A DNA stretch of 63,395 nucleotides, the filler included, from Reticulomyxa filosa (taxonomy: Eukaryota; Protista; Foraminifera), in assembly GCA_000512085.1 (NCBI GenBank). It is 23 parts of 23 records of this genome, joined end to end, with 100 filler letters (N's around TTAATTAATTAA, not from the genome) between each part and the next. Parts side by side here need not be neighbours in the genome. Positions count along the whole stretch, not along the records: positions 35,701 to 41,621 come from ASPP01010263.1; 22 more parts are not named here. One strand, 5' to 3'. Under the pieces are notes generated by a model, which was not told where the DNA came from, did no database searches, and was given only the letters and a program-made list of their open reading frames with translations. A program made the position numbers and the translations under genes. Shown one piece after another: positions 36,073-38,630 of this stretch (within the stretch, counting starts at the first letter, position 1; each line of letters begins with the position of its first letter).

Positions 36073-38630
36073 TTACATTCTTGGATTGTTCACAAATGGT
36101 AAACCGTTATTTACAGTAAACTTTGTGGCAAATTGAATCGAAGTCCAATCCTGATTTTTCGGAAGAAAGTTTTCTTCTAAAAGAAAATAGCAGAACAAAT
36201 TAACATTATCGTCGCAACAACGTTTTTTCATAAATTCTCCCCTTTTTTCTTTGTACATTTGCGTATTGGTGCTTTGAGCAGACCATTCTTTAAAAAACGA
36301 TAATAACGCAACAGCATTTTCTATATCGCTTCCAAAGATCGTAAATATTAAATAAATGATATTTAGATTAAAGGCACGACCCCACGTGGAATTGATTTGA
36401 AATACCTGTTGCAAGAATCGATCGTACTCTGCCCACGTCAGCAAGATCACTTGTGTGTTATTGTCTTCAGCCTCTATTACGGCATTCCACGAGGACAGTG
36501 ACCGATCTTGTGTGTCTTTATGAGTAATTGAATCAGTGGAGGACCTTGAAAACAAAATTTCACGTTCGTGTTTGAATGGAGATATCCATGACACATCACA
36601 GCAAAAAATATGGGGAGCTCGTCTCATGGAAGGATGAAAATGTAGAATACACCCTTGTTCGCCTTGAAAAGCCTTTGCAATTTCCAAATCATCAGAAGTG
36701 CTGACATAGCTAATGAAATAACCAGTTTTTATTTCTTTGTGAATGCTCTCCAGCCGCACTTCTTTCAATCCGCAATACAGATCAATACGACTCTCTTCTC
36801 TTCTTTCATGCAAACTGCATATTTTGATGGCCTCACACAAATAGCTATCGAAATATAGCCATTTATAATGTCGAAATTGGATTTGGTCATAACTGAATGC
36901 AAAGTTGCACTCTTTTGCACAATACAACAATATTGCACAAACGTGGTGCAATTGGAGTGGATAGCCCATCTGTTTGTGGGTATGGCAATGATATAATTGT
37001 TTCACTTCCTTCAATATTGTCAATATTGTATCATCTAAAATCAATTGATCAGCATTCTGCTTGTCATATTGAATGTCTTTTTTAATTTTCTCTTGATCCT
37101 CTTCTTTGAGCTTCGTATCTTCATTCAGTAAATCATTCAAATGACCATTTTTGATCATTTCATGCAAAAGCGTTTTCAATCCATTGTTTGTGGTTTGTCT
37201 CAAAGCCATTTGAGATTGAACCAACTCAAATCTTTGAATATCACACTCATACAATAATGGATTAAATTGGACTTTGTTGCCAAACGAAGTGGCTCCATCT
37301 TCATGGTCATCACTTTGTGGCACATTGACATCAAGCGTATATCCGTAAGAAACCATGCAATCGTAATCAATGTCCCAACTGACTTGAATATGAGGATACT
37401 CCGAAAGCTCTTTGTACACATTATGCAATACCACATCGTCACCAGTGGTCGATGGGATTGGAGGCTGACAATTCTCAAACTTACATTTGGACCAGATTAC
37501 CTCATCTTTTCCATTCAAAAAATATTCTTTCGTTCGCAATTTGTATTCCAAAGTTTGGAGTCCGTTTCTTAACGTCGCTGAGAATGGATCTACAGGTTCT
37601 TTATGTGTCTTCATATATCTATCTTTCCAACTGACATGGAAAGAATTGAATTCCTGTTCATTATTGGGAAGGGGGAGGGGGGGGACATTGAAAAAAAAAA
37701 AAAAAAAAAATTGATCGAATGATCCAAGTGATTAAAAAATAGCAAAACTCACACAATCAGATTATAGACTAACCGAGCAGTAGTTTGACAGATTTTCTCG
37801 TTCCTCACAGTTGAGCACGCGAAAGTGCCAAGAGCGATTGAGAACGAGACGACACCACTTGACATGAGTGTACGTGTCATCCACTTTCGAAAACTCGTTG
37901 CTCCATTCAATGTGTACGTCAAACTCTAATTTTGCCTTTGCATTCCCAACTTGCAATGTCTCAATCTTTGGCTTTTCGCTTCTCTTATCCAACAACACTA
38001 TCCTTCGATTCTCATAATCAAACATCATTTCATACTCTTTCCATTTGTTATCTTTCAACATACACACTGTTTCTGGAATTGATTGCTTTATTTGATAACT
38101 ATACTTTTAAAAAAAATACATATATGTATAAATGTACGTATACATATTAATATAGAGTAATACAGATATGTACCCACTCAAATAAATAAATAAATAAATA
38201 AAATACATTTTTTGTGTATGGATCCATTTACAATAGAATTGCCATAAATGCAATATCTCAACGGCACTGGTATAATACCAATTTGTATCGGCTTTCTTTT
38301 CAAAACCAAACTCTTCCAACTGCGATTTCATCTTCGCATATGTTCGATTAATGTCGATGCCTTGGTGGCTACATCTTTTCTCTAAACTTTTAAATAATGC
38401 ACTATCGCTTATCTCGCGATATTTTATCTTTGTGGGATGGCTCAAAATATTCCATAGCACGTGCAAACACATTTCGCGTATTATCGTCTTCTCACTCTGT
38501 CCTTGCAACCTATCACATCTCAAGCCAAGTTCTCATTTCGTTAAAGAGCTGGGGGGGGTCGCTGTTTCAATTTTTTTTTTTATTACTCAGTGGCATTGTC
38601 AGTAGTGGAAGACTGTTCAACTTTCTCCAT
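36073..38630 (-). CDS. PUB domain + PH-like segment + ADP-ribosyltransferase (ARTC/R-S-E fold, Arg replaced by Cys) + CUE/UBA-like tail; four exons, apparently intact
   Basis: ATG at 38630. PUB motif LHVLWNILSHPTKIKYREI...LEEFGF. ART signature CAILLYC...KWLYFDSYLCEAI...LYCGL...YVSTSDDLEIAKAF..EQGCILHF...CDVSWISPFKHEREILF. Three GT-AG introns join the ORFs in frame. Confidence 0.8.

Follow-up and report, generated by a model that had tools for sequence, protein, structure and literature searches.

Introduction

ADP-ribosyltransferases (ARTs) of the ARTC type use two NAD-phosphate arginines (PMC6829252), and the Arg and Ser of their R-S-E signature keep NAD in a strained form (PMC10789625, PMC6501648). 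For human ARTC3 and ARTC4, which deviate from R-S-ExE, PMC10928986 records that no activity was detected. A further departure is seen in XopAI, a Xanthomonas type III effector with the motifs FTG, VLE, AAS and ExE, which is argued not to bind NAD (PMC6829252) and which binds an Arg peptide adjoining E265 (PMC6829252; PDB 6k93/6kly). Those eukaryotic ARTC proteins that have been characterised are oriented towards the ER lumen or the cell exterior, and the enzymes that write arginine ADP-ribosylation inside cells are said to be largely unknown (PMC6501648, PMC10789625).

The second family of concern here is that of the PUB domains, whose binding of the p97 tail has been tied to the motifs YxxN(x)9Y and K/RxxN, the second of which serves the p97 C-terminal carboxylate (PMC6995525). 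The PUB domain of SPATA2 has Val for the first Tyr and, as reported in that paper, binds no PIM (PMC6995525). In the PUB domain of HOIP both Tyr82 and Asn102 matter (PMC4017264).

Here we analyse a gene of the foraminifer Reticulomyxa filosa in which PUB, PH and ARTC folds are predicted to occur in one protein. A reading of the DNA made before any searches (the sequence-only reading) had proposed a canonical Arg-specific ART, docked via its PUB domain on the C-terminus of p97 and modifying p97, ubiquitin or ubiquitinated cargo.

Results

Gene model and domain architecture

The window (the whole stretch of DNA analysed, 63,395 nucleotides) consists of 23 pieces joined by 22 artificial linkers of the form N44-TTAATTAATTAA-N44 (for example 35601-35700 and 41622-41721). 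The wider neighbourhood of the gene is meaningless because contigs have been joined in this way, and its own contig spans only 35701-41621 of the window; arguments from gene neighbourhood were therefore dropped. Translation by eye shows a gene resembling an adaptor-complex mu subunit on the same contig (about 39130-40940, minus strand). Elsewhere in the window the same approach picks out two related genes with terminal TPR-like repeats (23840-25680 and 14947-16398, both minus), the first of which starts with a caspase-like-looking segment, and an RNase H-like fragment, possibly retroelement-derived (11838-12185, minus).

A protein match identifies the gene as the database record RFI_14130 (P0001). 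Its four minus-strand exons, separated by GT-AG introns of 77, 108 and 120 nt, splice and translate into a single 750-residue frame without a stop. This bears out the earlier assertion that four exons form one protein frame, and all the peptides quoted in its support are found in the translation. The exons and domains are as follows, with residues numbered as in P0001 (numbers in the 750-residue splice are higher by 27 through residue 88 and by 16 from residue 100 onward).

38587..38630, minus strand: exon 1, 44 nt, with a candidate ATG and a peptide like the tail of the paralogs' second CUE-like repeat
38207..38509, minus strand: exon 2, which holds the PUB domain
about 38472-38218, minus strand: PUB domain, residues 1-89
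37774..38098, minus strand: exon 3, PH-fold domain, residues 106-212
36073..37653, minus strand: exon 4, with the ubiquitin-like candidate, ART fold and helical tail
37350..37653, minus strand: probable ubiquitin-like (beta-grasp) domain, residues 213-305, from the order of secondary structure and a weak Pfam match
36427..37257, minus strand: ARTC (R-S-E clade) fold, residues 341-617
36292..36426, minus strand: three-helix segment, CUE-like candidate (helices 616-632, 638-648 and 652-666 in the model)
36073..36291, minus strand: helical C-terminus, of no known family, in which RCC..N.F and GLPF motifs are conserved, followed by the stop

In the database model, translation runs on for 11 residues into intron 2. 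We judged this less likely, because AlphaFold confidence dips there and because 9 of the 34 paralogs having both PUB and PH domains have the length of a clean exon 2/3 junction (..TQKI followed directly by YQIK.. in RFI_14130); the remainder mostly show intron read-in as in the database model, and a few are shorter. The extra last exon of the database model was likewise judged less likely than the splice of the sequence-only reading, in which the stop falls six residues past GLPF. Such an end fits the family, 30 of 42 records ending within 14 residues. At the other end of the gene, the exon 1 peptide lines up with the end of the paralogs' second N-terminal CUE-like repeat, and a run of the paralogs' N-terminal profile upstream of RFI_14130 gave nothing significant for a further CUE exon.

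An AlphaFold2 model built from an 81-sequence alignment has pLDDT 88.7 and pTM 0.90, the latter of which suggests that the domains pack together; exon 4 folded from its single sequence gave pLDDT 34 and no usable model. Fold matches were found in the AlphaFold2 model for all three of the PUB, PH and ART calls made previously. The PUB segment matches PNGase PUB 2hpl (Z 9.2, rmsd 1.9, 75 aligned), and Pfam PUB matches exon 2 at E 0.0012, below the cut-off. The PH segment matches pleckstrin PH 2i5c (Z 11.1, rmsd 2.0, 84 aligned) and many further PH chains at Z 9-10. For the ART segment, the best match is ART2.2 1og4 (Z 15.2, rmsd 3.1, 198 aligned; Z 14.5-15.2 across matches of this type), with HopU1 (14.0), ExoT/ExoS (13.0-13.5), the 6drh toxin/immunity pair (13.4) and XopAI (12.5-13.0) also found; the helical lobe and split beta-sheet of the ARTC fold are both present. 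Foldseek with this segment returned six matches at E<=0.001, every one ExoS/T or XopAI, and at E<=0.1 Pfam ART matches 14 of 53 family members. Nothing significant came from searching the PDB with family sequences, NCBIfam gave 0 matches in nine proteins scanned, and ESM Atlas features gave no usable match, a low-confidence ESM model yielding ART-cluster leads only. Pfam and fold searches of the protein itself listed no PDE family or fold.

Between PH and ART there is probably a ubiquitin-like domain that had been overlooked. Residues 213-305 are modelled at pLDDT above 90 in the order strand-strand-helix-strand-helix-strand (read by eye), and the Pfam ubiquitin-fold family E1_UFD matches paralog P0026 at E 0.003 in a region that maps onto them; profile comparison gave no match to the ubiquitin domain of the relative P0091. 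The top 50 fold matches, which ART and PH chains filled, included no ubiquitin-like or CUE rows. The CUE/UBA nature of the tail is suggestive: its three-helix segment has the LL motif and lacks the FP motif, Pfam CUE/UBA gave no match to it, and its profile match to the paralogs' N-terminal CUE-like repeat is weak (probability 5.5%). The N-terminal repeat of paralog P0070 matches Pfam CUE at E 0.002. RFI_14130 shows no stretch resembling a signal or transmembrane segment (best 19-residue hydropathy 1.57).

Two expansions of one gene family

The gene had been presented as a single system, and it proves to be one of dozens of paralogs. A search with exon 4 retained 76 proteins from 3882 candidates (71 from R. 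filosa, four from EukProt and one metagenomic), and the family numbers at least 81 R. filosa records, many of them fragments. By family-built profiles the full set of PUB, PH, ubiquitin-like, ART and tail segments is present in 23 of 81, and 15 of these 23 also carry the N-terminal CUE-like repeats that are absent from RFI_14130. A few paralogs already bear ART or CUE names in UniRef. In P0042, P0050 and P0078 the reading continues into Kelch or WD repeats, perhaps because gene models were fused; by eye, Kelch-repeat-like genes similar to these C-terminal extensions are also seen in the window at 16676-18031 (plus strand) and 19886-21121 (minus strand). A second family member lies on another contig (491-1986, plus strand). 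It is about 40-45% identical and has several frameshifts, one just before STS, and may be a pseudogene or reflect assembly errors.

Searching with a profile built from the four EukProt proteins gave 213 matches, 120 of them listed. The 15 non-Reticulomyxa relatives that we looked up comprise ten from Bolivina argentea, one each from Ammonia sp. and Nonionella stella, all foraminiferal genera, and three without an organism. Among the 120 listed, 24 have a precomputed PH match; among the matches listed there is also one relative with a ubiquitin domain, one with an E2 and one with a SAP domain. In P0184 and P0091, respectively, an E2 (UBC) domain and a ubiquitin domain plus RanBP-type zinc finger are fused to the ART fold. 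A CCHH pattern, presumed here to be PBZ-like, is present in 79 of 121 non-Reticulomyxa relatives among the matches listed, Pfam zf-CCHH giving weak matches in 2 of 26 relatives scanned, and a 90-residue domain of no assigned family occurs in 88 of the 121, sometimes in two or three copies. Among the same 121, many of which are partial, a length-limited search found no clear PUB domain and one marginal match. A metagenome scan produced 11 pattern matches and no confirmed relative.

In an unrooted FastTree of 152 ART cores (50 gappy rows of 202 left out), the Reticulomyxa copies together with P0063 are split from 96 others with support 100, and on this tree the family is two separate expansions. 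The sister clade (P0073-P0076, P0087-P0202) is marked by two PBZ-like Cys/His fingers just N-terminal of the ART fold. P0041 branches outside the remaining 54 Reticulomyxa copies. For the ART core of RFI_14130 the end branch measures 0.28 changes per column, and no paralog exceeds 75% identity to it.

The ART active site

We applied the ARTC criteria of an arom-R motif [YFL]-R-X on strand 1, STS, [QE]xE and the less conserved aliph-R, whose column was located by motif spacing rather than by structural superposition. In RFI_14130 the corresponding positions are as follows.

36769..36777, minus strand: Y-C-G (LYCG) in place of the arom-R motif Y-R-G; the Cys codon is TGC at 36774-36772
36880..36882, minus strand: Ile466 at the second NAD-phosphate Arg position (aliph-R), the column placed by motif spacing
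36694..36702, minus strand: STS motif S526-T-S528, intact in the sequence
36559..36567, minus strand: ExE motif E571-R-E573, intact in the sequence

The toxin-type ART motif series had been described as complete; STS and ExE are indeed there, but Cys stands in place of the strand-1 Arg and Ile in place of the second NAD-phosphate Arg. Loss of the strand-1 Arg runs through the whole family. In 64 Reticulomyxa records this column reads C 55, S 4, Y 3, A 1 and R 1; in 106 other relatives among the matches listed it reads S 69, T 33, others 3 and R 1. The register of this column is fixed because both Arg cases, P0041 and P0148, read the textbook YRG. P0041 is the sole Reticulomyxa paralog with a canonical YRG, and even there the helix Arg (aliph-R) is absent; that column has Arg in 0 of 60 Reticulomyxa records as against 116 of 120 other relatives among the matches listed.

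Conservation of the remaining motifs was also compared between the two clades. In the sister clade, among the matches listed, the first S of STS is kept in 101/102, the first E in 97/97 and the second E in 96/97, with conservation ranks of 10, 1 and 12 among 148 columns, values inflated by the gathering of this set through shared words that include these motifs. In Reticulomyxa the counts are 52/63, 46/59 and 51/60 and the ranks 89 (S526), 101 (E571) and 83 (E573) of 154, no better than the median column, in a set whose fragments and probable pseudogenes lower the apparent conservation. S..ExE is kept in 42 of 57 Reticulomyxa records, and S or an E is lost in the other 15; joint loss of S and E across the copies was not significant (Fisher p 0.07).

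Further basic residues are conserved, namely R508 (kept in RFI_14130), R552, R553 and R578. We did not adopt R578 as a stand-in for the lost Arg, since an Arg at the equivalent position is common in canonical ARTCs. D464, D529 and D530 are conserved in the Reticulomyxa clade, and the net motif charge of RFI_14130 is -2. A crude charge count over the motif segments gave a mean of -0.2 for Reticulomyxa vs -0.9 for the sister clade, and did not point to a more acidic cleft in Reticulomyxa.

The PUB pocket

The pocket of the RFI_14130 PUB domain reads V5-x-x-N8-(x9)-Y18, with Val replacing the first Tyr. It could be read in 32 of 35 PUB-bearing records, and in all 32 the first Tyr is I, V or L; the Asn (N8) is kept in 30 and the second Tyr (Y18) in 32. 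At the spacing expected for K/RxxN, no copy has K or R at Y+4 and one has Asn at Y+7. Asn is found at Y+4, as an N-cap before the next helix, in 15 of the 32 (Ser in RFI_14130), and may be a shifted equivalent of the K/RxxN cornerstone. The proposal that this PUB domain is aimed at p97 therefore stands as regards the fold and falters at the pocket: binding of p97 by the family is doubtful because the first pocket Tyr is absent from every copy read, and K/RxxN at its spacing is missing as well.

Discussion

The sequence-only interpretation holds in part. The PUB-PH-ART architecture stands, and the link to ubiquitin is stronger than had been claimed because of the probable ubiquitin-like domain, the CUE-like repeats in 15/23 full-architecture paralogs and the relatives with ubiquitin or E2 domains; both functional pillars, catalysis and p97 docking, are weak. 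We put at about 0.5 the probability that RFI_14130 is a cytosolic, non-catalytic pseudo-ART adaptor, with an ART cleft that is likely to be inactive because the NAD-gripping arginines have been lost. By analogy with XopAI, the cleft would serve as a binding site, most likely for arginine-bearing peptides, in which the remaining ExE would grip a target arginine but not pass ADP-ribose to it. In the cytosol, where the protein is predicted to reside, the PH and CUE-like modules would recruit it to membranes and to cargo marked with ubiquitin, and the PUB domain would engage some ligand different from the canonical p97 tail. The many divergent and broken copies may reflect birth-and-death evolution, a pattern that surveillance or decoy proteins would be expected to show.

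This reading draws first on the columns themselves: the strand-1 Arg is C, S, Y or A in 63/64 Reticulomyxa records and the helix Arg is gone in 60/60. XopAI, in which the same two arginines are lost, is among the top fold matches (about 200 aligned) and offers an analogy. The median-only conservation of S and ExE in Reticulomyxa, the absence of activity in mammalian ARTC3/4 (PMC10928986), and a SPATA2-like state at the first pocket Tyr position in 32/32 copies point the same way. Against it, RFI_14130 keeps STS and ExE, unlike XopAI with its changed STS, and 42/57 Reticulomyxa records keep S..ExE; the highly conserved S, E and E of the sister clade, together with its helix Arg, would fit catalysis; and R508, R552, R553 and R578 could substitute for the lost arginines. 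The charge count shows no more acidic cleft in Reticulomyxa, and the inactivity of XopAI is itself argued from structure in the source.

These objections lead to the strongest alternative, a catalytically competent mono-ART or NADase of the cytosol whose NAD pocket has been rewired: other basic residues would replace the strand-1 Arg, ExE would modify arginine and the appended modules would choose the substrate. We hold this possible and, for RFI_14130, somewhat unlikely. The protein does have STS, ExE and R508, and PBZ-like fingers link the family to ADP-ribose. Such an enzyme is likelier in the sister clade, which keeps S, E, E and the helix Arg and has S or T at strand 1 in 102 of 106 listed relatives, than in the Reticulomyxa clade, which is without both arginines and has a relaxed ExE; the sister-clade conservation is, however, inflated by the word-seeded search, and the Arg and Ser of R-S-E are what hold strained NAD (PMC10789625, PMC6501648). 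A broader proposal is that foraminifera hold hundreds of active cytosolic ARTC-fold enzymes without the strand-1 Arg, a third type of active site beside R-S-E and H-Y-E, with interchangeable PUB, CUE, ubiquitin-like, E2, PH and PBZ-like modules directing them to the ubiquitin-p97 pathway as an endogenous eukaryotic ADP-ribosylation system. This we consider unlikely.

It is more unlikely again that RFI_14130 is a functionless, decaying duplicate, truncated at its 5' end, in a family with fast turnover. Neither of the N-terminal CUE-like repeats found in 15/23 full-architecture paralogs is present, exon 1 looks like a remnant, and the paralog at 491-1986 of the window is frameshifted. Set against this are 750 codons and three phased introns without a stop, a confident AlphaFold2 model, and family motifs that persist over an end branch of length 0.28 in an ART core sharing 75% identity or less with every paralog. 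Finally, the p97-docked Arg-specific ART of the sequence-only reading is very unlikely: its PUB and ART folds are confirmed, pocket residues N8 (30/32), Y18 (32/32) and the N-cap Asn (15/32) are kept and CUE-like and ubiquitin-like domains lie alongside, but it requires both an NAD site and a PIM pocket, and both are without their defining residues, the N-cap is Ser in RFI_14130, the 121 listed non-Reticulomyxa relatives have no clear PUB domain (one marginal), and no SidE-like PDE partner domain was seen in RFI_14130.

The architecture and the family are real and apparently undescribed, and it is the enzymatic and p97 claims that are weakened. Among papers found for Reticulomyxa or foraminiferal ADP-ribosyltransferases and for PUB-ART-p97, none was seen to describe the family; the Reticulomyxa passages of PMC4245714 concern PARPs. 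In this free-living protist lineage, apparently cytosolic ARTC folds have expanded twice independently, with loss of the strand-1 Arg fixed. Should these proteins bind without catalysis, they would make up a sizeable natural collection of pseudo-ARTs that act as readers or decoys and are coupled to ubiquitin modules; should they be active, the family would define a new solution to NAD binding. In either case, natural members vary at every key position.

Among known systems, XopAI is alike in its ARTC fold, a small residue at arom-R, the lack of an aliph-R Arg and the presence of ExE. It differs in being a bacterial single-domain effector with STS changed to AAS, whereas RFI_14130 is an intron-containing eukaryotic multidomain protein with STS intact, and at 10-11% identity the XopAI-like loss of arginines is likely to have been independent. 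The vertebrate ecto-ARTs (ART2.2/ARTC1, ARTC3/4; PF01129; 1gxy, 1og4) give the best fold match and have STS and ExE in common with it; they are GPI-anchored or secreted single domains, whereas RFI_14130 combines its ART fold with PUB and PH domains, lacks a signal-like N-terminus and has lost the strand-1 Arg. A parallel with the Legionella SidE/SdeA mART (5zq2), drawn in the sequence-only reading, extends to an ARTC fold with ExE and a ubiquitin context (PMC10143409) and is weak, the fold match being distant (Z 8.9, rmsd 5.1, rank 36); SidE couples its mART to PDE and DUB domains, neither of which was seen in RFI_14130. The AACRN/AACRNL Crinkler-like UBL-ART proteins are also eukaryotic and expanded and also combine ubiquitin-like and ART domains, but are described as transposon-linked and of the H-Y-Y diphtheria type, unlike RFI_14130 (PMC12957317); neither Reticulomyxa nor foraminifer is a term in the main text of that paper. 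Lastly, the PUB domains of PNGase, UBXD1, HOIP and SPATA2 (PF09409) have the fold, the pocket Asn and the second Tyr in common with RFI_14130, which is closer to SPATA2 in its Val for the first Tyr and the absence of K/RxxN at its spacing; none of these named PUB proteins carries an ART fold.
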